A DNA stretch of 64,000 nt. It comes from an uncultured virus (IMG/VR IMGVR_UViG_3300025072_000003). Lineage: Duplodnaviria; Heunggongvirae; Uroviricota; Caudoviricetes. A program made the translations under genes and the position numbers. Below are positions 1-56,509 of this stretch, in pieces (the stretch's first letter is position 1; every line of letters starts with the position of its first letter). The notes beneath the pieces are model-generated. The model was not told the DNA's origin, ran no database searches, and saw nothing but the letters and a program-made list of their open reading frames with translations. The stretch lies in IMG/VR virus record IMGVR_UViG_3300025072_000003. The stretch is one strand, 5' to 3'.

Positions 1-431
1 GTCTGATAATTGTCAAGGTTGTTTTTGCCGCCCTTTGATTTTGGAACAATATGATCTTTAGTCATTAAGATAAGTTCATTATCAACGACAGAGTATAAAT
101 TAAAATGACACCCTCCATCTAAAACCCACTCGTCAAGGCTCATGTATTCTCCTTTTGCCCCACAACACATGCAAGATATACCTCTTGAGAACAAAGTATA
201 TCGTTGAGAACAAATTTTTACAGAATGTTCAACTTCATCTACAACAAAAACCCTTCTTGTTTTGCGATACTTTTTATCTGATGGATCATCAACAAGCAAT
301 AAGTGCTTAAATAATTCCTCTGGGTTGAAAAGTGCAAGACTGAAATATGGCATGTTGCCGTTACAGGAAATCCATGGAGCAATTCCAAGATCTTCTAACT
401 TTGAATATTCAATGTCTATGACTTCACTCAT
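1..431 (-). CDS. HNH endonuclease (3' end truncated by window edge)
   Basis: Hand translation from ATG 431: ...CMCCGAKG...HFNLYSVVDNELILMTKDHIVPKSKGGKNNLDNYQ; paralogous to 20472-21389. Confidence 0.75.
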   Translation of the reverse strand, partial: MSEVIDIEYSKLEDLGIAPWISCNGNMPYFSLALFNPEELFKHLLLVDDPSDKKYRKTRRVFVVDEVEHSVKICSQRYTLFSRGISCMCCGAKGEYMSLDEWVLDGGCHFNLYSVVDNELILMTKDHIVPKSKGGKNNLDNYQ

Positions 432-555
432 TGTGTTTCCCATTTCATTATTGATAAAATCAAACCAATTACCATCGTACTTGTCGCTATCAAAGAACCG
501 TTAAGTAATACAACGTCCATGTTGATTTCCCCCTAAAGTAAAATTAAAACGCCCC

Positions 556-4811: not shown

Positions 4812-5095
4812 TATTTTTTCAAGTCGTCCAATTCATTTTTGAAATCATCCAATGCATCGGCAAAATCATTTACTATTTCCAAACACTCTGAAATTTCTTC
4901 CCCTACAGAAACCGAATCTTCTTCGCTGATTAGAGGATCGCCATGCTTTTCCAAAAGATCAAGTGTGTGATCCATCACATTACATACTTGAATTCCAGTC
5001 TCTTTGATTTCTCCCTCAGGAAAATCCTCTATTGCTTCACGCAACTCTTTGAAATACGCTTCAAACTCAACTCTTTTTGAATAATCAAAACTCAT
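4811..5095 (-). CDS. acidic hypothetical protein
   Basis: coupled ORF. Confidence 0.65.
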   Translation of the reverse strand: MSFDYSKRVEFEAYFKELREAIEDFPEGEIKETGIQVCNVMDHTLDLLEKHGDPLISEEDSVSVGEEISECLEIVNDFADALDDFKNELDDLKK

Positions 5096-5628: not shown

Positions 5629-6228
5629 CTAATCCGTGTTGTGTGTCTCTTCACCAGTGTACTCATTCCAATTGTCCCACCAAGCTTCTGTTTCAGCATC
5701 AATTGAATTTTTGTCTTTTTCAAACAGATTTTCATCTTCCCACTTTATTTCCCCATCATCATCAAGAACAAAAGTGTCAACGTCGTCATCATCACTAAGA
5801 AATGAAAATTCTGAACTTCTGCTTTCTCCCCAATGAGTTTGTTTCGGTTTATGTGGTTGAGAAAAACCAGTTGGGGCAATTCCAACAAATGACCTTGCCT
5901 TCTTTGGACGTGTGCAATTCCCAGTTGCTCCAATCTGTGACGCCACAAGACCTTCTGGTGCCAATTCGTCAAAACAATATAGATTGTATAATGAACGGTT
6001 TGAATTTTGAACCTCAATACTCTTACCATCTGCACTAAAACGACCACGCATAGTTCTGCGATAAATCGAAAGTGTTCTCTGAGCAATCATTGTAGCAAAC
6101 AATCTAAAATGAAGCTCTCTCGCCTCATCTACGTCGTCTTTTAATTTCAGTGTAACTCGATTGCTGTTTATCGTAAGTCGATTACACTCGCCGCCTTTTC
6201 TTACGATTGTAACTTCTGGAATCTTCAT
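5629..6228 (-). CDS. hypothetical protein with acidic C-terminus
   Basis: 199 aa ORF, AGGT RBS. Confidence 0.65.
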   Translation of the reverse strand: MKIPEVTIVRKGGECNRLTINSNRVTLKLKDDVDEARELHFRLFATMIAQRTLSIYRRTMRGRFSADGKSIEVQNSNRSLYNLYCFDELAPEGLVASQIGATGNCTRPKKARSFVGIAPTGFSQPHKPKQTHWGESRSSEFSFLSDDDDVDTFVLDDDGEIKWEDENLFEKDKNSIDAETEAWWDNWNEYTGEETHNTD

Positions 6229-19631: not shown

Positions 19632-20479
19632 TTTCTCCCAAACAATCCCCTTCTTTTGTACGTTGTCACTGGTTGTGGAGCAGGCTTCTTTGGTTCATCC
19701 TTCACAACTACTTGATCTTCTTTCGGCTGACTCAACAAAAGGCTGGCATCTTCCTTAATTTCCTTTCCATCACTGCTTTTTTCCACGTCTATATCTTTAT
19801 AAATTGGAAGGCTGTTAAGAAATTCCATATCACTTGGTGTCAAAGTCAGATGTCTTGGAGATCCAGTCATTCCCCATCTACGAGAAATCAACACAATATC
19901 GCTTCTGCTGTGTCCGTACCTGTACACCGAAGCGTTTTCATTTGTGATTAGTCCAAGAACTTGTATTTTATCTCTATTCTTGGCATAGTTGAACTTAATT
20001 TTTACTATTTCTTTTTTCAGAGCCTCGATCTCATTTTTTAATTCTTTAACACTTTCATCTTCCTTTGGAGGCTCATTGGGAGTTTCTTTGGGGGTTTCTT
20101 TTGGCGATGAGAACACAGGCTTTCGCACAACTTCTTTCCCAGCTTCCATCTTTTTATATGCCACAAAAGCTATAGTGCCACCAAACAAAATCACCATAAC
20201 AGCCAATAGAACAGGTATTGGTCCACCGTATTGATTCTGCCTTTGAGGTTGAGGCATATTAGGGTACAAATCTTCGATAGTTGGAACCTTTTTTGGCTCA
20301 ACAACCTCTTCCTCAACCTCAGCATTATCACGCCTACGGCGCTCCACAGTCTCTCTATTGCGTCTTTCCGCCTCAGACTCCACCTTTTCTATAGTAGGCA
20401 TCTCTTGAGCCTCTGGGGGCGTTTTAAATTCTTCTTTCATAACATCTTCCCAATCAAAGGGTTTTTTATTATCATCCAT
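19628..20479 (-). CDS. membrane-anchored coiled-coil protein
   Basis: central TM, coiled coil. Confidence 0.65.
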   Translation of the reverse strand: MDDNKKPFDWEDVMKEEFKTPPEAQEMPTIEKVESEAERRNRETVERRRRDNAEVEEEVVEPKKVPTIEDLYPNMPQPQRQNQYGGPIPVLLAVMVILFGGTIAFVAYKKMEAGKEVVRKPVFSSPKETPKETPNEPPKEDESVKELKNEIEALKKEIVKIKFNYAKNRDKIQVLGLITNENASVYRYGHSRSDIVLISRRWGMTGSPRHLTLTPSDMEFLNSLPIYKDIDVEKSSDGKEIKEDASLLLSQPKEDQVVVKDEPKKPAPQPVTTYKRRGLFGRN

Positions 20480-21389
20480 CTTCTTTATCTCCGACTAAAT
20501 TTTCATATAACACAAAATATGAGTCTCCAAACACGACTTTCACATTGCCGCCTTCTCTACTCAAAATTTTCAGTTCTTTTCCTGACTTAATACATGCCAT
20601 CCACTCTTCCCCATCTCCTGGGTGGTCAAACACAGATCTTCCATGATATGATCCGTCTGGCTTCACAAAGACGTTTATGTCTGAAGAGGCATGATCTTTA
20701 GTTAGTTCAATTCCCCTAATTTCAAAATCCGTATACGAATCTTTTATTGAGCGTATTCCACCACTAAATGTCTTTTTTGGAAGCTTATCTTTATTTTCAT
20801 TGTAATATTCACGCAACTTCTTTATTGCATCCAACGGAAGATGTTGGTCGCCTTTTAAGTTATTGCAAATAGAACACATAGTTTGATAATTGCTGTGTCT
20901 ATCTTTTCCACCACTTGCCTTAGTGTGAATGTGATCTTTGGTCATCAACACCAAAGATTCATCCTCTACACCATACAAATTAAAATGTGGAGTATCTTGA
21001 TGTGGATAGCGTTCCAAGATCATTCGTGTACCTTTCAATCCACAAGACACACATGACATATTGTTCTTGAAAACAAAGTACCTATGAGAATTAAGTCTCA
21101 CCTGATGGATTTCTCCATCAATTAGGAAATCTTGTCTTTCATCTTTTCTGCTAATCTTCTCAAGTATCTCGCTTGGATCAAATTCAGCAATCCTAATGAG
21201 TCTGGACTTCTTTTTCTTTATCTTATCAACTCTAACCGCAGAATTCACGCCTGGAGTGTTTTTAAAGAAAGTGTCAAACTCTTCTCTTGCTATTTCGATT
21301 GCCTCTTCTTGATCTATGTCATCTGGCAGATCTATTTCCCAAGTGAGTATGCCAATTGCTTTATATGTCTTGTGGTCACTGTCTTCCAT
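20472..21389 (-). CDS. HNH endonuclease
   Basis: CVSCG, TKDHIHTKASGGKD..SNYQTMCSICNNLK. Confidence 0.8.
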   Translation of the reverse strand: MEDSDHKTYKAIGILTWEIDLPDDIDQEEAIEIAREEFDTFFKNTPGVNSAVRVDKIKKKKSRLIRIAEFDPSEILEKISRKDERQDFLIDGEIHQVRLNSHRYFVFKNNMSCVSCGLKGTRMILERYPHQDTPHFNLYGVEDESLVLMTKDHIHTKASGGKDRHSNYQTMCSICNNLKGDQHLPLDAIKKLREYYNENKDKLPKKTFSGGIRSIKDSYTDFEIRGIELTKDHASSDINVFVKPDGSYHGRSVFDHPGDGEEWMACIKSGKELKILSREGGNVKVVFGDSYFVLYENLVGDKEDG

Positions 21390-21451: not shown

Positions 21452-22060
21452 TCAATATTCTTTGAGAAAATGCTTACAAATCTGTTTCCCACGACGATCT
21501 ATCTTCTTCCACTTGCTTTTAAAATTTATGGATTCAATTCCACCAAACATAATCGCATTGGAGTGAAGTTCAGAGATAGAAGCCAGCACAAGTGTAAACG
21601 CATCCTTTTTGGTCCACACATTTTCACAATAATACCCAACTTCATCGGCGCTGGCTGTGTGAATCAACATATCCCAGCCAATTAAATTTGCAACCTTTAT
21701 CTTATCACATCTATCAGATATAGCAAGATATGTCTTTTTTGACACATTGGCGTGATCTGGAAAGTGGGATCTACCATCTTCATCCACAACATGACAAAAA
21801 GGCTTTCCACAATCGTGAAATATTAAGTATTCATTAACTAAGTCTTTTGAATGAGAATCATTAATCAATTGTTTGCCATATTCTTTAAGCCATTTTGGAA
21901 TGCGCCATTCACAATGAGAATGACCCTCTTCTATTAGCTGCACAAGATCCTTGTAATAACTTGCAACTGATTGACCATGCAAATACACAGATTGGTTCTT
22001 AGTCTGCTTACATCTAAGCATCTCTCTGATAACTTCATCTTTGTTCTAGGTAAATCCCAT
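21452..22060 (-). CDS. HD-domain phosphohydrolase with in-frame TAG at codon 5 (22046-22048)
   Basis: H...FHDCGKP...HFPDH...DMLIH motifs; ATG 22060 overlaps the upstream TAA; reads ATG GGA TTT ACC TAG AAC in frame with ORF 21452-22021. Confidence 0.7.
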
Positions 22061-22431
22061 TATCTCTCTCCATATTTTTCTTTAAGTTCTTCATTTAATT
22101 CTTTGACTTTCACGCGAGTCTTTTCCACATAACTTTCATATTTGTTTCTGGAGTAATCATCATCATACTCCACAGGCAAATCTTCGTTGTTGTAAATTGC
22201 TGATTCAATACTAAGTGGCCTTATTATAATTTTGCGACCCTTTGACACAACTTTTGCACCCACAATGTTATAATACTTACAATCTTCATCACGAATCAAA
22301 ACCTCTGCACAACCGTCCCAGTAGGCTTCTTCACAAGCCACAAAATGTATGTCTTGATTGCCGATCACACATTCTTCTTCGCCAGATGGATCTGCCTCTT
22401 GAAGTCGTCGTATTAGTTCTTTAGTCTTCAA
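22060..22431 (-). CDS. hypothetical protein
   Basis: MKTKELIRRLQEADPSG, a common phage-type N-terminus. Confidence 0.65.
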   Translation of the reverse strand: MKTKELIRRLQEADPSGEEECVIGNQDIHFVACEEAYWDGCAEVLIRDEDCKYYNIVGAKVVSKGRKIIIRPLSIESAIYNNEDLPVEYDDDYSRNKYESYVEKTRVKVKELNEELKEKYGER

Positions 22432-22699
22432 ATGTTTCTCCTCTCGCTACAATCCCAAACACAGTCTGCATCCCTGCGCTCATTAAAGCTTCACGCTCTT
22501 TATCAGTAAGGGCATAAAACCAAGGGTCAAGTTCATCACAAAGCCTGTCCCACTCTTCGCTCTCCTCTTCTGTCCATTCTTCATCCTCTTTCACACTTCT
22601 TAATTTTGCACCATACTCACAAAGTAGGGCGTTATGTTTTAAATAACCGCCCATCCTAACGGAAGGATGCATCTTTTTAATCTCATCATACAATGTCAT
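22421..22699 (-). CDS. hypothetical protein
   Basis: GGAG RBS. Confidence 0.6.
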   Translation of the reverse strand: MTLYDEIKKMHPSVRMGGYLKHNALLCEYGAKLRSVKEDEEWTEEESEEWDRLCDELDPWFYALTDKEREALMSAGMQTVFGIVARGETFED

Positions 22700-22720
22700 C
22701 TTAATTTCTCCAAAAATAGT

Positions 22721-22758
22721 AAAAAAGTGCGATCCTGGGATTCGAACTTAGGACCGCA
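22721..22758 (-). terminator. terminator-like hairpin with tRNA T-loop-like loop
   Basis: TGCGGTCCT-AAGTTCGAATCCC-AGGATCGCA then TTTTTT. Confidence 0.6.
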
Positions 22759-22762
22759 TAAA

Positions 22763-23101
22763 TCAACATCCTTTCAATAATTGATACTTTTTAAAATATC
22801 TGCGCACAGAATTAGCCGCCACAGGTTCGGTGGCTAACGAAGTTAGCTCATCGCCTATGTCGGGTTCGGTGAATTCACAGAATTTGATACCAACGGTTTT
22901 TAAATACGAGCACACATTTTTAAGTGCTTTTTCCGTCTTTATACCGAAGACAATTACAGAAGGGTGTTCTTCTTCAACACCGCCAAGAAAGGCTTTGCAT
23001 GCCTCTATGGAAGCATGACAGGACTGTACGACCTGTTGAGGCACGCTTAGATCGCGCCTGATGAAAACGTAAACATAACTGTGGTTCTACGTGTGTGGCA
23101 T
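22763..23101 (-). CDS. peptidyl-tRNA hydrolase 2 (Pth2)-like protein with in-frame TAG at codon 5 (23087-23089)
   Basis: AGAGG RBS, ATG CCA CAC ACG TAG AAC then YVYVFIRRDLS-PQQVVQSCHA...FTEPDIGDELTSLATEP; Pth2-like motifs. Confidence 0.75.
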
Positions 23102-23137
23102 TTTTCTTTTCCTCTTAGTTAAAAAGTCTTACACTAT

Positions 23138-23166
23138 ATTGTAGTTTGAAAATGCAAGATTGTCAA
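23138..23166 (-). promoter_or_regulatory. promoter TTGACA-N17-TACAAT for the Pth2-like gene
   Basis: near-consensus, 37 bp upstream of ATG 23101. Confidence 0.75.
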
Positions 23167-23336
23167 AACATAAATCCAAATATTTTCAGGAACACAAGCA
23201 AACCAGTCAATGCCCCAATCAGGGAAAATAAGGTTCTTGCTAATTCCATCTTGTGATTGTGTTCGTCCAACCACCTTTCAAACCTTCCTCTTTTGTTGTT
23301 ATTCATATGCCTATTTTAACACACAAATAAGTAAAA

Positions 23337-23579
23337 TCAAGTGAAATATTCATAAAGTTGGAGATTGTCTGGATCTCTCTTCAATTCCGAACCTGTTTCG
23401 CCATTATAGACCTGAATCCAATGATCGTACAGCGATTCTCCATTTTCACTAACTTCGGCTAATTTTTGAATAGCCAAAGTTCGATCTGTCGTTACACAAT
23501 CTGGCCAGTTGTCGTCTCGTGATGCTGAGTCTGTTCTGACTACGTAAATTTTCATATCTTTACTGCAAAAATATAACAA
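23337..23579 (-). CDS. hypothetical protein (start probably MKIYVV)
   Basis: ORF in operon. Confidence 0.5.
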   Translation of the reverse strand: MLYFCSKDMKIYVVRTDSASRDDNWPDCVTTDRTLAIQKLAEVSENGESLYDHWIQVYNGETGSELKRDPDNLQLYEYFT

Positions 23580-23645
23580 TGCACATCATAGCCCAAAGAA
23601 CGAATGCAATGATTGCGATACAATCTCCTCGTGGACCACAAAGTC

Positions 23646-23909
23646 TCATTTTAATTCTTCCCACTCGCCCTGAATTTCTATCATCCGATCCAAACACCTT
23701 CTCGCATCAACAGTTTGACCCCTTTTTCTAAACAGGTCAAACGTTGATGAGAGATTTGATATTTGTTCATTCCTCTCTCCATTCCTGTCGCAAATTTTCC
23801 TCATTCGTTCAAGATTCTTTTTAGAGGCTGACAAATCTGACGTAATTTTGCGGTCAAATGCAATTAGTAAAACGGAAATAATCACAATGCCAAAACAAAA
23901 ATACAGCAT
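23646..23909 (-). CDS. membrane-anchored hypothetical protein
   Basis: N-terminal TM. Confidence 0.55.
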   Translation of the reverse strand: MLYFCFGIVIISVLLIAFDRKITSDLSASKKNLERMRKICDRNGERNEQISNLSSTFDLFRKRGQTVDARRCLDRMIEIQGEWEELK

Positions 23910-23916
23910 GATTCAC

Positions 23917-24420
23917 CTATGCATTTGGAATGTCGTTTAACTTTTGGTTCACGAAGTTTGAAAACACAACTCCAGTTCCAATCATGTGGGTGGAAAAATG
24001 ACCAAGCGTTTCATCTTCGGCTGCATCAATCCACTTCTTGATCTCTTCTCGCAAATCCTCTGAAGTCTGAGCGGACCTCTCGGCTTCCAATGCAAGTCTA
24101 GCAATGTTTTGTACTCTTTCATCAGATTGATCAGCCGCCTCTTGAAGCTTGATCTTTTTGTCTGGGTCGATGTCGTTTCCAACCTCGCCAAGCTTTTCTT
24201 TTAGCTCATGCACAAATTTGTAACCTGTGCCGATCATGTGAAGAGAGAAGTGAATCAAAGAATCTGCTTTGATAGCATCAACCCATTTCTTAATTTCATC
24301 ACGAAGGGCGTCACCAGCCTTGTGATCAACTTCTGCCTCCAAAGTCAAGGAAACCAATCTCTCAATTGTTCCTTTTGTGTTTTCTTGGACTTCAGCAAGC
24401 TTGTCAGTGGTTGCACTCAT
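23917..24420 (-). CDS. protein made of two internal repeats
   Basis: LEAE...LR.EIKKW.DA...L.HFS.HMIGTG occurs twice. Confidence 0.65.
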   Translation of the reverse strand: MSATTDKLAEVQENTKGTIERLVSLTLEAEVDHKAGDALRDEIKKWVDAIKADSLIHFSLHMIGTGYKFVHELKEKLGEVGNDIDPDKKIKLQEAADQSDERVQNIARLALEAERSAQTSEDLREEIKKWIDAAEDETLGHFSTHMIGTGVVFSNFVNQKLNDIPNA

Positions 24421-24590
24421 TTTATGCCTTTTGGTGTTGAGTGTGTTAGCTCTTGTCGAGCAATTTCAGTACGTTCTTCAAAAACAAAATAACGATTAGG
24501 ATGTTCCATGCTGTATCTCTTCTCATCATACTTTCTTGTCGCACATCCTGTCAATGTCAACAAAGCAACTAAAACGAAAAGTTTATACAT
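24417..24590 (-). CDS. small lipoprotein
   Basis: MYKLFVLVALLTLTGC lipobox; start moved downstream of the tRNA. Confidence 0.55.
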   Translation of the reverse strand: MYKLFVLVALLTLTGCATRKYDEKRYSMEHPNRYFVFEERTEIARQELTHSTPKGIK

Positions 24591-24611
24591 TGTTTCTATC
24601 CTTAAATTTAG

Positions 24612-24683
24612 CGGGCCTAGTGGGAATCGAACCCACATTGGACGTTTTAGAAACGCCTACTTTGCCAATTAAGTTATAAGCCC
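24612..24683 (-). tRNA. tRNA with CUA anticodon (amber suppressor)
   Basis: acceptor GGGCTTA/TAGGCCC, D arm ACTT/AAGT with GG loop, anticodon stem GGCGT/ACGTC with loop TT-CTA-AA, T arm GTGGG-TTCGATT-CCCAC, discriminator G, CCA not encoded. Confidence 0.9.
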
Positions 24684-26749: not shown

Positions 26750-27736
26750 TTAAATGTTTGAAAGTCTTGTAGCTATGTTACATAATACTTCAGAATCCTG
26801 CACTTTGTCAACAAGATTCTTTGGAATTTCCTCAATTCCATGCAAAGCGCCTACTAATGCGCCACACATTGACCCGTTTGTGTCTGTGTCACCCCCCGAT
26901 TCAATGGCATCGTACACACATTGAAATGTTGGATTTTTCAAAAAGTGCATGTATGTGAATGGCAATGAATTGTAAACATAACACGATCCTCCACCAAATG
27001 CTTCAATTACAGAATTAGGCTTATATTCCTGATAGCGATACAACTCTTTGAATCTTGTTGTTATGTTGTCTTCTCCATGCCTTACAGGAATAAAACCTTC
27101 TGCAAGCACGCTTCTGTTCACAATGGAATCAATAAAATCTTTATGATTAAAACTGTCTGGAGTGTTTCTCAAGCAATACTGGATAGCTACATCGTGCGCC
27201 AAGCCAGCAGAGATTGACATGCTGGTAGGATGTGTCATTTTTGTGAATGTCATCACTTCCGCAACTGTCTTCTTCCAGGGAGTTTTATTTACAAAATGAA
27301 ACGCTGCCAAAGGCGCAATTTTCATTGGCACGCCATTTCCAACACCTCTTGGCTTATTTGGCGATGACAGGCTTGCGCACTTGCTCCAATGCTCTCCCTC
27401 CTTCAACCTCTGAATTGCCTCTACCGTTGTCTTTCCCCATCCATTTGTGTTTTCAGTCATTGCCGTAACATGTTCTTCGGCAATTGCGTCCATATCAAAC
27501 GAATTTGATCTTAGTATTCCTTTAGCCACCGACAACGACAACTGCGTATCATCTGTGTATGTTCCTGGTTCACATCCATCAAACCAAATGTGTCCATCGG
27601 TTGAAACATAGTCTCTAATTCCATCAGGATATTTTTCTGCTATATCTTTTTGAGAGAACGTTTCAACTGGCATTCCAAGAGCATCGCCAACAGCCAGTCC
27701 AAGGAACATTCCTTTAATTTTACTCACTCCATCCAT
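26750..27736 (-). CDS. ADP-ribosylglycohydrolase (DraG/ARH family)
   Basis: GLAVGDALGMPVE, YTDDTQL, GNGVPMK, MTHP, GGDTDTNGSMCGAL. Confidence 0.92.
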   Translation of the reverse strand: MDGVSKIKGMFLGLAVGDALGMPVETFSQKDIAEKYPDGIRDYVSTDGHIWFDGCEPGTYTDDTQLSLSVAKGILRSNSFDMDAIAEEHVTAMTENTNGWGKTTVEAIQRLKEGEHWSKCASLSSPNKPRGVGNGVPMKIAPLAAFHFVNKTPWKKTVAEVMTFTKMTHPTSMSISAGLAHDVAIQYCLRNTPDSFNHKDFIDSIVNRSVLAEGFIPVRHGEDNITTRFKELYRYQEYKPNSVIEAFGGGSCYVYNSLPFTYMHFLKNPTFQCVYDAIESGGDTDTNGSMCGALVGALHGIEEIPKNLVDKVQDSEVLCNIATRLSNI

Positions 27737-28545
27737 GATGGACCCCCTTTATTCCTTTCTGACGTTTTCTTTATCATCTTTTTCTTTTTCTTTTCAGCCT
27801 CAAGCACACTTTCTACAGAATACTTAACAGGCTCGTCTTTAGGAAGGTTGCTCATAACATCAGAAAAAGCTTCTTGAAGAGACTTTTTATCTCTTTCATT
27901 TCTTTCATTTCTTTCCTTAGTTATCTTCTCTATCTCTTTCCTTTTCTTGGACTCTTTCTCATTTCTTCTCCTCCTAGTTTCTTCCGTAAGTCGCTCTATC
28001 TCAGCCTTCTTTTTCAGATACCTATCTTCATCTTCTTTCCTCTTCTTGGCTCTAGCTTTGTCCACCTCAGCTTGTTCTTTTCTTTTATTTGCCAAATACT
28101 CTATGCGTTGTTCAGCCTTTGCAGATTTATTTGACGACTCTAACTCATCTACCTCTCTTCGCAAAGAATCGACCGAAATCTTCCTCTCGCCAGCAACTTT
28201 TTCTATCTCGGCATCTTTCTTCCTTTTAAGAAGTATTTGCCTTTCGGCATTCAACTTAAGTTCTACCTCAGTAGGCGCAACAATGACTTCAAGTTCTGAA
28301 ACCAAAGATTCAACGTCAACTCCAAGTTTTCTTGAAAGCGAAACAATAACGTTCACACATCTAGTTTGAATGTCATGCGGCTCATGATGCTCTTGTTCCG
28401 CATAGCTTCCAGCGACAATGCTGCTTCCATCGACAATTTTATTTTTATTACGAAGTTTGTCAAAAATCGAAGGGTCAACTACATTCGGTCGTCCAGACAC
28501 CTGCCTTGGGGCATTTCTTTTATAGTCATCACTCATATCACTCAC
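27724..28545 (-). CDS. coiled-coil protein
   Basis: long K/E/R-rich helix. Confidence 0.65.
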   Translation of the reverse strand: MSDMSDDYKRNAPRQVSGRPNVVDPSIFDKLRNKNKIVDGSSIVAGSYAEQEHHEPHDIQTRCVNVIVSLSRKLGVDVESLVSELEVIVAPTEVELKLNAERQILLKRKKDAEIEKVAGERKISVDSLRREVDELESSNKSAKAEQRIEYLANKRKEQAEVDKARAKKRKEDEDRYLKKKAEIERLTEETRRRRNEKESKKRKEIEKITKERNERNERDKKSLQEAFSDVMSNLPKDEPVKYSVESVLEAEKKKKKMIKKTSERNKGGPSWME

Positions 28546-37443: not shown

Positions 37444-37472
37444 ATTATACTTCAAAATGTGCTATTTGGTAA
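37444..37472 (-). promoter_or_regulatory. promoter TTACCA-N17-TATAAT with TTTTGAAG
   Basis: family member. Confidence 0.7.
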
Positions 37473-37477
37473 GTCAT

Positions 37478-37507
37478 AAAAAAAAACGCCCCCTTTAGGG
37501 GGGCGTT
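37478..37507 (-). terminator. intrinsic terminator
   Basis: AACGCCCCC/GGGGGCGTT stem plus T run after sigma gene. Confidence 0.8.
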
Positions 37508-37531
37508 CAAGCAAAAAACATCCAATTTGTT

Positions 37532-38146
37532 CTAAAAAATCGCTTTTTCAAAAGAAGCAATCAGTTCCTTGTGTGTGTTTCTTATGTTTTCCAAAACTAC
37601 TGCTTCCAATTGTCGAATTCGCTCTCTTGAGAGTCCGTAAGAATCTCCAACTTCTTGCAAAGTCTTTCCTTTAAAAAATCTTTGCAACAATATATCTTTC
37701 GATCTTTCGTCTATCTTAATCCCCTCAAAAAGTCTTTCCAACAAACGATTTTTGTCCTTCAGAGAAATCCTTCTTTCGTTTTCATCCTCTAGAACCTCAA
37801 AATCATTCCCATTCATTGGATGCTCTTTATTATATCGTCTTCGAACCTTCCAACCTTTTATTATTTCATTCCTAACCACCTCATAAGCGTAGGTCGAGAA
37901 TTTAGATCCCTTATTCGGATCATAACCTTTATGCGCTCTAATAAGACCAATACAGGCATCTGAAAATTCTTCCGTGTCTTCTGTTTCAACCCCCTTAGGA
38001 GTAAACTTGTTTGCAATAAAAAAAGCAATCCCTAAATTATCCTCTGGTTTCGTTGATGCCGCTTCATTGACATCCTTCCATTCAACACTGTTTTTTCTAT
38101 ACTTAACTTCACGGTCTTCCGCCGAATCACAATATACAGCGCTCAT
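37532..38146 (-). CDS. sigma-70 family sigma factor
   Basis: IGLIRAHKGYDPNKGSKFSTYAY (region 2); KTLQEVGDSYGLSRERIRQLE (region 4). Confidence 0.9.
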   Translation of the reverse strand: MSAVYCDSAEDREVKYRKNSVEWKDVNEAASTKPEDNLGIAFFIANKFTPKGVETEDTEEFSDACIGLIRAHKGYDPNKGSKFSTYAYEVVRNEIIKGWKVRRRYNKEHPMNGNDFEVLEDENERRISLKDKNRLLERLFEGIKIDERSKDILLQRFFKGKTLQEVGDSYGLSRERIRQLEAVVLENIRNTHKELIASFEKAIF

Positions 38147-38167
38147 CTTTAGCTCCTTCTAAGCTTT

Positions 38168-38593
38168 CTATTTTTTATAATTTGCAAAAAATATTGCCAA
38201 GTCCCCAAATGCCAATTGAGCCTTTGGGTGCAAACTATCTTCTGGATGCACCCAAGCAATTGGGACGCCCATATCCATGTACTTAAGAGTCATATCAATA
38301 CGACCAACAGCATGTCTTACGCCAATGCCTTGATCTCTAAGAAAGTCTGGTGTTGTTTCCTCCAATCCAGGGAAAACAGTGAGTAGCAACTCTGGCGTCA
38401 ACGCATGATATGTCTGCGTTCTATCTGCATGATAAACGCAGACTTCAAGATCAAGCTTCAAATGGTTCGCATATTCAATGTCTTTTGTAAGGTTTGGATC
38501 TTTGAAAATCATAGTGATTGGCTTAGTTTCGATTTCCAAAACATCTTCACCCACAGATATTATTTCTTTATCGCAATTCATCTTAAACCCCAT
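38168..38593 (-). CDS. hypothetical protein
   Basis: HPEDSLHPKAQ resembles an ABC/AAA Walker B-D loop fragment. Confidence 0.55.
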   Translation of the reverse strand: MGFKMNCDKEIISVGEDVLEIETKPITMIFKDPNLTKDIEYANHLKLDLEVCVYHADRTQTYHALTPELLLTVFPGLEETTPDFLRDQGIGVRHAVGRIDMTLKYMDMGVPIAWVHPEDSLHPKAQLAFGDLAIFFANYKK

Positions 38594-38985
38594 ACAAACT
38601 CTGAAATAATTTCATGACCAATAACCGCCTCTTCATAAGTGCAATATCGTCTCTGATACTGATCGTATTCTCCATCACTGTCATCAAAAAACATTGTCTC
38701 AAACAATATTGGCTTTCCATTGTCATAACCATAACTCATCCCAAAAAAAACCGTGGAAAGCATCTTGCCCTGTTCAAAAATGTCCGACTTTACTGACTCT
38801 ATTCCATGCCAATCATTGCACCTGATAACTTCACCAGTTTCTTGATTCAATGAATAAAAATCTGGTCCTAGTGGCTGGTAGTCAGGGTGTCTAGCTGTTG
38901 TTGAATTAAATAAAACGTCCCTCGTTGAAGGGTCGTTTATTTTAATTAATTTCGCCCAATTTTCTATAATGTCCATCATTACCAT
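38578..38985 (-). CDS. phage hypothetical protein
   Basis: STVF...LFETM.F...QRRY.T..EA..GH, a common phage family motif. Confidence 0.65.
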   Translation of the reverse strand: MVMMDIIENWAKLIKINDPSTRDVLFNSTTARHPDYQPLGPDFYSLNQETGEVIRCNDWHGIESVKSDIFEQGKMLSTVFFGMSYGYDNGKPILFETMFFDDSDGEYDQYQRRYCTYEEAVIGHEIISEFVWGLR

Positions 38986-40995: not shown

Positions 40996-42330
40996 TTATG
41001 CCGCTCGTTCTGGAGGCTCTAGCATTTCCGCGATACCAGTAACAACTTCCTTGGTAATTACGCATTTCTTTTCTTTCCGCTCTGGAAGTTCGAATTGAAT
41101 ATCAAGCATGACTTCCTCAAGAATGCCTCTCAATGAACGAGCGCCAGTCTTTTTGGCAACTGCTTGCTTTGCAACTTCGATCAAAGCATCATCTTCGAAA
41201 CTTAATTCCACTCCATCAACCTTGAACAGAACTTCGTATTGCTTAACCAACGCACTTTTTGGCTCGGTCAGCACTTGAACTAACTGTTCTGCTGACAAAT
41301 CTTCCAACGTAGAAATTACTGGAAGACGACCAACCAATTCTGGGATCAATCCAAAATGAATAAAATCTTCTGTGGTGGCTTGAGCAAGCAATTCATTTTT
41401 GTCAGTGATTTCATCACCAGATGAATCTGGATTAGTAAAGCCAATTCTTTTATCTTTTCCAATCCTTGTCTTAACAATGTCTTCCAATCCTCCAAATGCT
41501 CCACCACAAATAAACAAAATGTTTGTTGTGTCGATTTGGATAAATTGCTGCTCTGGATGCTTGCGACCACCTTGAGGGGGAACATTAGCAACCGTCCCTT
41601 CAAGCATTTTCAGCAACGCTTGCTGTACGCCTTCGCCAGATACATCACGAGTAATCGAAACATTCTGAGAAGTCTTTCCAATCTTGTCGATTTCGTCAAT
41701 GTAAACAATACCACGCTCAGCAGCTTCTTTATCGAAATCAGCGGCTCTCAACAGCTTCAGAAGCATGTTCTCAACGTCCTCTCCAACATAGCCTGCCTCA
41801 GTGACCGTTGTGGCGTCACAAATCGCAAAAGGGACTCCTAGAGCGTCTGCCAACGTCCTAGCCAACAGCGTCTTCCCGCAGCCTGTGGGACCAGCAATTA
41901 AAATGTTGCTTTTTTCAAGATTGATCTCAGACTCTTCTGCAATCTTGGAAATTCTTTTATAGTGATTAGTCACTCCAACAGATAATCGCTTCTTTGCACG
42001 CTCTTGACCAATGACCTCTTCATTTAAAAGATCCAAAACACTTCTGGGAGTGGGGATGTCTTTGATAAGTGAATTTCTTGGCTTTTCTTTCCTGCTGGAA
42101 TCAATCACCTTTTTGCACGCTGGCAAACACTCCCCACAAACAAACACTCCAACTGGCGATGAATTATCGTCTATTCGACTTCCATTTTGTTGGCTCCCTT
42201 CTCCTTCAACCAAAGGTCCAACAACGTCATTTTTCTTTAGACAAAAATCACAATATCGTTCGCCAACCTTTCCTTTTTGCTTGCTTTTTCGCTTTCTTTT
42301 TTCATCGTCCTTATTGGTTTCGTCAGTCAT
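40996..42330 (-). CDS. clpX: ATP-dependent Clp protease ATPase subunit ClpX
   Basis: C4 Zn finger, [51 protein letters not shown] loop. Confidence 0.97.
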
Positions 42331-42382
42331 GGTTTACCTCGAAAAGTGTATCTCTATGTTAGCACAGAAGCATGCTACGGTT

Positions 42383-56115: not shown

Positions 56116-56454
56116 TCAAACTCCATTCATGTAATCAATAAGACCGCCGCCGAAATTCCACTGTGGCGAAATTTCGTATTCTTCAATCAACCGGCTAATT
56201 TCCGATCTCACAAAATCGTGATTATCTCTGTCAACGGCTAGTTCTTTTAACTCTTCAAACTTTTCGTTTAACTGATTGTGTCTGTCATGAGCGATAAAGG
56301 GACGCTTCTCCTCCACCTCTCCTCTTACAACATTGATCTCTCTTGGAGCGTTTATTCCAAGTTTGACCCTATTTCCATTAATGGAAAGAACTACAACTTC
56401 AACGTTTTCACCAACTTTTAGGCTTTCGCCATCTTTTCTCGAAATTACCAACAT
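56116..56454 (-). CDS. csrA: CsrA homologue with C-terminal extension
   Basis: MLVISRKDGESLKVGENVEVVVLSINGNRVKLGINAPREINVVRGE. Confidence 0.9.
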   Translation of the reverse strand: MLVISRKDGESLKVGENVEVVVLSINGNRVKLGINAPREINVVRGEVEEKRPFIAHDRHNQLNEKFEELKELAVDRDNHDFVRSEISRLIEEYEISPQWNFGGGLIDYMNGV

Positions 56455-56479
56455 ATCACTTCCTTTCTTGTTATGCCCT

Positions 56480-56509
56480 ATTCTACTTCAAAAACGAACA
56501 AAGTGTAAA
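56480..56509 (-). promoter_or_regulatory. promoter TTTACA-N18-TAGAAT with TTTTGAAG
   Basis: family member, one half of a divergent pair. Confidence 0.65.

Follow-up and report, generated by a model that had tools for sequence, protein, structure and literature searches.

The window examined here, a stretch of 64,000 nucleotides (nt; 64 kb) from an uncultured virus of the Caudoviricetes (IMG/VR record IMGVR_UViG_3300025072_000003), has a GC content of about 39% and carries nearly all its genes on the minus strand. Between positions 21452 and 24683 lie the three elements with which this work is concerned: a suppressor tRNA with anticodon CUA, a gene for a protein resembling the peptidyl-tRNA hydrolase Pth2, and a gene for an HD-domain protein, the two genes each interrupted close to their start by an in-frame TAG. 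The original prediction, made from the letters of the window, had placed the tRNA and both genes on one strand and the TAG at codon 5 of each gene; all three were found there on the minus strand, and translation confirmed the position of the two stop codons.

The tRNA(CUA) gene (24611-24683, minus strand) is supported by ARAGORN, by its cloverleaf fold and by direct reading, and is identical in the contigs of other sequencing runs. ARAGORN, run as a check on the predicted tRNA, reports no second tRNA in the whole window. The cloverleaf has a minimum free energy of -23.9 kcal/mol (z -2.35), and the tRNA is of class I, with the anticodon loop UUCUAAA, discriminator G and no encoded CCA. The label tRNA-Pyl, which ARAGORN puts on any CUA anticodon, was rejected; PylS and PylBCD are absent from the Pfam matches of the 78 window open reading frames (ORFs) scanned. 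The window tRNA matches only a 23-nt stretch of a tRNA-Lys, and we claim no amino-acid identity for it.

The Pth2-like gene (22763-23101, minus strand; Pfam PF01981) lies about 1.5 kb downstream of the tRNA on the same strand, and comprises 112 codons with TAG counted as sense. Its translation begins at an ATG (23101-23099), meets the TAG of codon 5 (23089-23087) and ends at a TGA (22765-22763), reading MPHT*NHSYVYVFIRRDL... (the asterisk marks TAG) and, in longer form, MPHT*NHSYVYVFIRRDLSVPQQVVQSCHA...; a Shine-Dalgarno (SD)-like GAGGA (23110-23114, minus strand) stands 8 nt upstream of the ATG. About 1 kb beyond the Pth2-like gene is the HD-domain gene (21452-22060, minus strand; 202 codons with TAG as sense), with its ATG at 22060-22058, the TAG of codon 5 at 22048-22046 and a terminal TGA at 21454-21452, reading MGFT*NKDEVIREML... 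and, in longer form, MGFT*NKDEVIREMLRCKQT.... Its ATG overlaps the TAA of the ORF upstream, as TAATG, and an SD-like GGAG (22068-22071, minus strand) precedes it by 7 nt. In both genes a Thr codon stands before the TAG (ACG in the Pth2-like gene, ACC in the HD gene) and AAC after it. The next canonical start lies 15 codons past the TAG in the Pth2-like gene and 9 codons past it in the HD gene, in neither case with an SD-like motif. A mechanical scan of both strands for a start, at most 15 codons, a TAG and at least 70 open codons returned 42 rows, among which only these two genes combine an SD-like motif and ATG upstream with the lack of a good start nearby downstream.

The TAG letters were compared with the contigs of four independently assembled marine metagenome runs, a possible source run being excluded. 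The Pth2-like TAG is covered in all four runs and the HD TAG in three, the contigs of run X5 not reaching it, and zero letters differ; the window TAGs are not assembly errors. That they are inactivating mutations or assembly errors, and the genes pseudogenes, might be read from the annotations of cultured phages, in which the genes are treated as split or truncated. This explanation is contradicted by the independent assemblies and by conservation, since the feature recurs in more than 100 diverged homologues (25-52% identity), in which the frame stays open after the stop and the domain has a fold predicted with confidence, and we give it practically no credence.

The early TAGs are also not part of a genome-wide change of code, as the original prediction had held. 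Among the window ORFs of at least 150 codons TAG is the terminator of 15 of 61, TAA of 27 and TGA of 19, and TAG codons that bridge two long open stretches are not commoner than TAA or TGA codons in that position. TAG-joined long frames are not enriched in the whole contigs G001-G005 either, and in the complete relative G006 TAG terminates 91 of the 566 long ORFs. In the window gene for a PRPP-synthetase-like protein the Pfam domain ends at residue 359 and the TAG stands at 360 of the read-through frame, and in the RmlC-like gene the domain ends at 228 and the TAG stands at 231. Over the 64-kb window and the six whole contigs the code thus appears otherwise standard and the gating gene-specific. 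Partial recoding of TAG, similar to code 15, would make the two genes mere members of a recoded block; the presence of a suppressor tRNA(CUA) would suit it, and block-wise recoding has been described in crAss-like and other phages (10.1101/2021.08.26.457843; Mgcod, 10.1101/2022.06.29.495998). We consider it very unlikely in view of the terminator counts and of the position of the TAG, which lies at codons 3-12 in 104 homologues rather than being scattered. Moreover, scans of the window, G001-G005 and G006 (about 1.2 Mb, in which the window phage itself is seen over 64 kb only) gave no convincing early-TAG gene other than the HD and Pth2-like genes, with TAG matches no more numerous than those of the TAA and TGA controls. 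One conserved ORF (KNR-x-LVLNK-x-W ... QRAITLL), at about 50197 in G005 (plus strand) and about 101179 in G006 (minus strand), has an ATG, a leader and a TAG six codons before a Met; its recurrence in two distant phages may be chance or may mark another gated gene.

In order to follow the early stop through both families, relatives were collected from viral contigs by alignment searches, which gave 117 relatives, 80 kept loci and 67 distinct loci for the HD family, and 125, 80 and 66, respectively, for the Pth2-like family, the two sets of loci overlapping through fusions and shared contigs. For the latter family a four-sequence alignment (A4) was used, a single-sequence search of the viral contigs with the window protein having returned zero relatives. 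As the prediction implied, the early in-frame stop is kept in most members of both families, with conserved domain sequence right after it. An ATG, 1-10 codons and an in-frame TAG directly precede the conserved N-terminus in 56 of the 67 distinct HD loci; TGA occupies this place in two more, and three of the remaining nine have a TAG inside the domain. The Pth2-like family has an early TAG at 48 of 66 distinct loci and a convincing TGA in three, a fourth TGA called by the script (locus L168) being followed by an ATG just before the domain; two apparent TAA gates, 14 and 122 codons away from the homologous part, appear to be spurious. The stop that bounds the reading frame on its 5' side is TAG in 56/67 HD and 52/66 Pth2-like loci, against 201 of 901 (22%) other same-strand ORFs of the same 160 loci (Fisher p 4e-24 and 2e-20, respectively).

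The gate TAG is mostly codon 3-5 and never codon 2. The base that follows it in the 104 gated genes is A in 74, G in 22, C in eight and T in none, while natural TAG terminators (n = 101) are followed by A in 41, T in 22, G in 16 and C in 22 (p for T = 5e-8). A purine after UAG favours suppression in E. coli, and the bias fits selection for readthrough. What is conserved is this T-free, mostly purine, next base and not the Thr-TAG-Asn context to which the original prediction had drawn attention: the codon before the TAG encodes Thr in only 29/104 genes and AAC follows in 14, the commonest following codon being ATT (37).

The gated genes are linked to suppressor tRNAs. ARAGORN finds a tRNA(CUA) within 3 kb at 25 of 56 gated HD loci and at 30 of 48 gated Pth2-like loci, so that the co-occurrence anticipated for the TAG and a nearby tRNA(CUA) holds locally for 55 of 104 gated loci and not for the rest. 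Every suppressor listed is on the strand of the gene; it is often the sole tRNA there and often 120-300 nt from the gene. A motif search with ARAGORN confirmation places a CUA tRNA elsewhere in eight of the 32 HD contigs that lack a local one; four more of these contigs have CUA tRNAs of cloverleaf-like shape in which additional bases separate the acceptor stem from the D arm, and two further contigs a minimal tRNA-like element. The complete genome G006 has a CUA tRNA although the motif search missed it. Pattern matches in G008, G016, G017, G028, G032 and G034 are not tRNAs by ARAGORN or by eye and were discarded, and the calls made by ARAGORN with introns and a low threshold, mostly implausible intron-containing ones, were left unused.

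The stop codon also matches the anticodon of the suppressor. All five TGA-gated genes (L103, L130, L174, L176 and L182) are in contigs with a tRNA(UCA), which is local in L174 and L176 and elsewhere in the contig in the other three, and a local tRNA(UCA) is found at one of the 104 TAG-gated loci. In the reverse direction, the starting point was a tRNA(CUA) motif alone, which gave 60 distinct viral loci with ARAGORN confirmation; 27 of the 60 have a Pth2-like or HD gene within 4 kb, in all 27 on the strand of the tRNA. By eye, these 27 comprise 15 genes with a leader and TAG, ten members of a short Pth2-like subfamily of about 93 residues that has no early stop, and two weak HD matches. The 102 distinct CUA tRNAs are heterogeneous, with best matches spread over many phage tRNA types and 27 without a match.

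At several loci, CUA tRNA-like genes lie 250-450 nt upstream of gated HD or Pth2-like genes and are missed or under-scored by ARAGORN and Infernal (L281, L294, L283 and L280 at about 1455-1545; L285 at 1486-1544; L278; L003 at 5868-5939). Four of them are cloverleaves with about eight extra bases, two consist of an acceptor and T arm only, of about 59 nt, and one scores 21 bits. Suppressor counts in phages may be underestimated, because these programs miss such non-canonical CUA tRNAs.

The Pth2-like protein scores 28.1 bits against the Pfam PTH2 profile PF01981 (cut-off 23), with residues 10-109 on profile positions 3-115 of 115, and a profile of four sequences matches the solved archaeal Pth2 2zv3_A (E 3.3e-6) from the first strand of 2zv3 onward. 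The window protein aligns to the C-terminal domain of a fusion protein (L005; E 1e-28) from residue 6, which is the first after the TAG, and the next canonical start, a GTG at codon 20, would drop the first strand. The R-x-D-L and Q-x-x-H-A motifs are shared with Pth2, and R15, D17, Q26, H29, E79, T87 and R100 are invariant in the phage family. Archaeal Pth2 has as its catalytic residues the Lys of a Gly/Lys loop and, in a D-A-G-x-T segment, the Asp and Thr. When aligned to 2zv3, the phage sequence has a gap at the G-K-G-K loop and E-P plus a four-residue gap opposite D-A-G-H-T. The alignment is weak over this stretch, and the phage protein may differ from Pth2 in these two segments, which align to gaps or other residues; it differs also in its fusion or pairing with an HD domain and in its probable gating by a stop codon. 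PTH2 has been reported in jumbo phages by Iyer et al., who proposed a role in ribosome rescue, with no mention of the stop in the accessible part of that work (PMC7824862).

The HD protein belongs to PHROG 14850 (E 7e-54), a group of unknown function, and has no match to any Pfam family, HD models included, at E up to 0.01; the matches in NCBIfam are all below threshold. The family alignment (41 sequences) shows no variation at H82, H103, D130 and H134 and at least 90% conservation at H28, D83 and H99, giving the H...HD...H...D metal-site motif of the HD superfamily. Of the solved structures, the one closest to an eight-member profile is 3wfp, the A-adding enzyme of Aquifex aeolicus, with the match in the HD region (E 9.4e-5, chain residues 252-344). 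The AlphaFold model built on the 41 sequences has a mean pLDDT of 96.4, and its first helix spans residues 7-16; the top match of this model is 3wfo_A both in Foldseek (probability 1.00, TMq 0.57, E 3e-3) and in VIA-align (Z 13.3, root-mean-square deviation 3.5 over 165 residues, model 5-200 on chain 251-448). The top 50 VIA-align entries include many further HD proteins (PgpH, YfbR, OxsA and the C-terminal domains of PPX/GppA) at Z 7-11. The HD domain of class II tRNA nucleotidyltransferases (3wfo/3wfp) is thus the best match in sequence and in structure, as the original prediction of both proteins had it: Pfam and the PDB profile search support the Pth2-like assignment, and the PDB profile search and fold comparison the CCA-enzyme-like HD assignment. 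Unlike those enzymes, the phage HD protein stands alone and has no nucleotidyltransferase head, all 202 residues being HD-like and no PolyA_pol match being found; judged by its sequence and model, it resembles the HD part of a class II CCA/A-adding enzyme and is not a CCA-adding enzyme itself. In the E. coli CCA enzyme the HD domain has phosphatase and cyclic-phosphodiesterase activities.

Genome records of bacteria and archaea contain few members of the HD family (11 loci). Four of these loci, on contigs of metagenome-assembled genomes, have an early TAG, and three of the four a CUA tRNA. The HD homologues of Pseudomonas records, two of them labelled as plasmids of about 1 Mb, and of a Sphingomonas contig (L347, L348, L349 and L351) have no early TAG; an ordinary tRNA gene lies about 1.2 kb upstream at the three Pseudomonas loci.

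Both domains are fused in relatives of the window phage. The HD domain precedes the Pth2-like domain in L003, L005, L105, L114 and L119 and in the cultured phages XacN1, RAS14 and Xoo-sp13, and follows it in L086, L091, L101, L104, L107, L113, L125, L131 and L142 (the last being Tenacibaculum phage pT24), and the stop sits at the start of the fusion in either domain order. In G004 the two genes are neighbours with an early TAG in each, as in the window. Only the Pth2-like gene is gated in G005, Acinetobacter phage ME3 and Salmonella phage Arash, where it runs into the beginning of an HD gene without a stop of its own. As they are fused in relatives, the Pth2-like and HD proteins are two halves of one functional unit, a point that the original prediction had not made.

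Taken with the conservation of the early stop, the linkage of a suppressor on the same strand and the match between stop and anticodon, these findings lead us to the view that the two enzymes are probably made only when the phage tRNA overrides the stop. This was the core of the original prediction, a gene-specific switch in which both enzymes need UAG readthrough, and the comparative evidence supports it strongly, its claim about codon context excepted. Ribosomes would start at the SD-like motif and ATG and meet the UAG at codon 5 of each gene. When no suppressor is available, release factor RF1 would release a short peptide, of four residues in the window and 2-10 across the family; when charged tRNA(CUA) is present, the UAG would be decoded, one residue inserted and the full enzyme made. 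The output of enzyme would then follow the expression, processing and charging of the suppressor, in competition with RF1. The Pth2-like enzyme would cleave the ester linkage by which a tRNA carries its peptide or amino acid, and the HD enzyme would be a phosphohydrolase of the class II CCA/A-adding type, acting on tRNA 3' ends. We infer the decoding of these UAGs by the tRNA, the insertion of a residue and the substrates of the enzymes from the comparison of genes and genomes. On this evidence we consider it likely that the Pth2-like and HD proteins are made by gene-specific, suppressor-dependent translation with dose-coupled output, and the arrangement, as seen in genome sequences, is widespread among large phages.

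Several observations weigh against suppressor-dependent translation of the two genes. An active suppressor would lengthen the proteins of those long window ORFs that end in TAG. The HD and Pth2-like counts are not independent, since the two sets of loci overlap. An SD-like motif precedes the leader ATG in only 43/104 gated genes, as judged by a crude pattern. Retention of the catalytic loop residues of archaeal Pth2 is not evident, and hydrolase activity is putative. Sixteen gated HD loci yielded no CUA tRNA; 15 of them are on contigs that are 2-83% complete, and the sixteenth is on G001, which is 97% complete and yields no tRNA(CUA) by ARAGORN, Infernal or a structural scan, although its HD gene has two in-frame TAGs. 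This contig, that of loci L002 and L093, is the one clear exception to the match of stop and suppressor; the HD gene (L002, 5977-6579) has its TAGs at codon 7 and at about codon 47, and of the 34-37 tRNAs carried none is CUA, a tRNA(UCA) being present. The Pth2-like subfamily of about 93 residues adjoins tRNA(CUA) while having no early stop, and the link between gene and tRNA is therefore not explained by gating alone. In this subfamily (L189, L194, L208, L212, L218, L377, L395, L402, L410, L417, L420 and L425) the tRNA(CUA) comes next after the gene, about 280-300 nt from the point at which the gene match begins. Lastly, a nearly invariant Met of the HD protein stands 9 codons past the window TAG, and a start there would give an almost full-length protein, while an ATT follows the gate TAG in 37/104 genes, where reinitiation at this rare start would be possible, as it would not at the AAC of the window.

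The last two points and G001, with its stops and no CUA tRNA, would suit a reading in which the first codons form a separate leader ORF of 2-10 codons, the enzymes arise by reinitiation or from an internal or non-canonical start, and the tRNA serves another purpose. A leader ORF could use any stop, however, and it is TAG, the rarest terminator, that bounds both gene families in the great majority of loci; the stop also matches the anticodon of the linked suppressor in each of the TGA cases. In the window Pth2-like gene none of the codons ATG, GTG, TTG, CTG, ATT and ATA occurs after the TAG before the first domain strand is reached, and in homologues the TAG can lie deep in the domain (codon 47 in phage CBB and in L148/L149) or be joined by a second (L093). 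In the HD protein, the residues that separate the stop from the Met are conserved and make up helix 1. We therefore regard the leader ORF as improbable and keep to suppressor-dependent readthrough, with the reservation that the HD gate may be leaky, with some ungated HD synthesis, because of the near-invariant Met.

As to the purpose of the gate, dose-coupling is in our view the most likely: the hydrolases would scale with suppression and would clean up its by-products, such as stalled or dropped-off peptidyl-tRNA, or restrain the suppressor. We favour it because the tie between the Pth2-like protein and the CUA tRNA persists in the ungated subfamily, which hints that the tie goes past gating, and that the suppressor is either the working partner of the enzymes or the reason for them. 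The main alternative is a timer or leak-proof switch, differing from dose-coupling in purpose only, in which expression needs both the mRNA and the matured, charged suppressor with no feedback, and in which enzymes harmful to the tRNA pool if made early would be delayed and their onset sharpened. The same gate evidence applies to it, and a tRNA and gated gene on one strand, often so close together, are as expected of co-transcription. A synthetic circuit of the same design ends leaky expression in E. coli, as far as the accessible text describes it (PMC7969014), and stop-codon recoding has been proposed, in the part of the preprint consulted, as a regulator of late and lysis genes (10.1101/2021.08.26.457843). 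A timer leaves unexplained why just two tRNA-end enzymes are gated in so many lineages, and why ungated Pth2-like genes sit beside tRNA(CUA); we regard it as possible at a tentative level.

Dose-coupling could extend to a self-tuning circuit, an idea that we put forward tentatively and hold to be rather doubtful: the early stop would be a sensor that sets hydrolase output, and the hydrolases would in turn act on the suppressor tRNA or on the products of readthrough, which may be peptidyl-tRNAs and damaged tRNA ends. If this were true, a standard-code phage could run controlled stop-codon suppression, the suppressor tRNAs of jumbo phages would gain a target and a governor, and the circuit would be a natural case of translational feedback through a dedicated tRNA. 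The further proposals that the switch senses charging or RF1, and that it serves as counter-defence against tRNA-targeting systems, are speculation.

Cultured phages have the same arrangement. A tblastn search found the HD gene in 29 phage records, and all eight cultured phages examined combine a tRNA(CUA) with a TAG lying in frame in the HD gene, the Pth2-like gene or their fusion. In Pectobacterium phage CBB (L151) the TAG is at codon 47 of the HD gene and a tRNA(CUA) is annotated 3 kb downstream. In Salmonella phage Arash (L152) the Pth2-like gene begins ML-TAG and the tRNA at 4997-5071, annotated as tRNA-Phe, is CUA by ARAGORN. The beginning is MKS-TAG in Ralstonia phage RsoM2USA, MK-TAG in Xanthomonas phage XacN1, Stenotrophomonas phage RAS14 and Tenacibaculum phage pT24, MKK-TAG in Xanthomonas phage Xoo-sp13, and MT-TAG in the Pth2-like gene of Acinetobacter phage ME3, all six with a tRNA(CUA). 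The annotations affected by the gate include L151-L156: the HD gene of CBB is split at the TAG into two coding sequences in the public annotation, the Pth2-like protein of Arash is annotated as a 50-residue fragment, and the annotated starts of XacN1 ORF364, RsoM2USA_91, pT24 gp293 and ME3 gp266 lie downstream of the stop. The gated genes were missed earlier because gene callers start them after the stop, and their annotation in many published genomes is hereby corrected.

Suppressor tRNAs without apparent purpose occur in many large phages with the standard code, and the gated genes offer concrete and conserved targets for them. The XacN1 paper describes two CUA suppressors whose target genes the authors could not identify (PMC5852040), and the accessible text of the RsoM2USA paper describes one, with no target named (PMC8504454). 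The tRNA is of the same kind as in the window, and the gated genes found here are in the XacN1 ORF364 region (MK-TAG) and the RsoM2USA_91 region (MKS-TAG); as far as their accessible text goes, the two papers sought or assumed readthrough of natural terminators, and a gate upstream of the annotated starts went unseen. In the parts of them that were available, the preprint of Borges et al. (bioRxiv 10.1101/2021.08.26.457843) and a 2026 survey of jumbo phages treat suppressor tRNAs within genome recoding, the former proposing that stop-codon recoding regulates the translation of late and lysis genes. Full-text searches, subscription journals and supplements lying outside them, found no paper describing amber-gated Pth2 or HD genes. 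Against the published record, suppressor-dependent phage expression that is gene-specific, placed at the gene start, found in standard-code phages and tied to two tRNA-end enzymes would be new.

The nearest natural parallel is that of the code 15 phages (crAss-like, Lak and other gut phages, in which TAG encodes Gln). As described in the accessible sources, they too have a phage tRNA(CUA) and a host presumed to use the standard code, and an in-frame TAG ties expression to that tRNA, for which a regulatory role was proposed (10.1101/2021.08.26.457843). In those phages the TAGs are scattered in many genes, especially late, structural and lysis genes, and TAG has been abandoned as a terminator; in the window phage, in contrast, TAG is still a terminator and two linked accessory genes are gated, within the first dozen codons. 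The phage system would be a natural two-part translational switch, composed of a dedicated tRNA and an early stop, distinct from whole-genome recoding and maybe an early step toward it, and it would be linked to enzymes of tRNA-end repair and ribosome rescue. Synthetic feed-forward gates follow the same logic, with an amber codon near the gene start and a co-expressed suppressor giving two-input control and removing leaky expression, according to the accessible account (PMC7969014); these are engineered, whereas the phage gate would be their natural and widespread counterpart.

Two bacterial and phage systems also bear comparison. RF2 is made from prfB by frameshifting at an early UGA, which is autoregulatory, and the lambda bar minigenes, which are very short ORFs, are linked to peptidyl-tRNA drop-off and Pth. 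As in these, an early in-frame stop in a translation-related gene could report termination or decoding capacity. Unlike prfB, the phage gate would need no frameshift, the downstream frame being the same, and its partner would be a dedicated suppressor tRNA.

The setting of the three elements is that of a very large phage, as indicated by the Pfam matches of the window. These include a ClpX-like ATPase and other AAA ATPases, a sigma factor, an ADP-ribosylglycohydrolase, NUDIX, the PRPP-synthetase-like protein, CsrA, PspA, an ion channel, ParB and sugar-nucleotide enzymes. The CsrA homologue (56119-56487), the ClpX-like ATPase (40999-42333), the sigma-70-family factor (37448-38611) and the ADP-ribosylglycohydrolase (26753-27748), all on the minus strand, are accessory genes typical of very large phages. 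An RNA ligase (PF09414; 33100-33756, minus strand) is separated by about 360 nt from a gene whose product has a cyclic-phosphate-processing receiver domain (PF20274; 34121-34972, minus strand); the two make up a second pair for RNA repair, some 10 kb away from the gated module. The DNA of the window has a sole match in the phage collection, a weak one of 112 bases to a 595-kb uncultured phage; the closest HD homologue is on a complete 572-kb contig with terminal repeats. The runs that contain at least half of the sampled words of the stretch are all labelled marine metagenome, and no RNA run is listed for the stretch.

Between the tRNA and the Pth2-like gene (23163-24590, minus strand) are small ORFs, for example one of 167 residues at 23917-24420, for which Pfam and PHROGs give no informative match. 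Two small overlapping ORFs (22421-22699, 92 residues, and 22060-22431, 123 residues; minus strand) lie between the Pth2-like and HD genes and have no Pfam or PHROG match, the second being coupled stop-to-start to the HD gene. Directly downstream of the HD gene is a gene for an HNH endonuclease (20472-21389, minus strand; Pfam HNH and HNH_5), a neighbour that is probably a mobile intruder. A similar Cys-rich, HNH-like ORF is found at the start of the window (3-500, minus strand), and in blastn the window segments 49-107 and 20851-20993 both match one place in G006; the HNH-type genes of the window are probably homing endonucleases.

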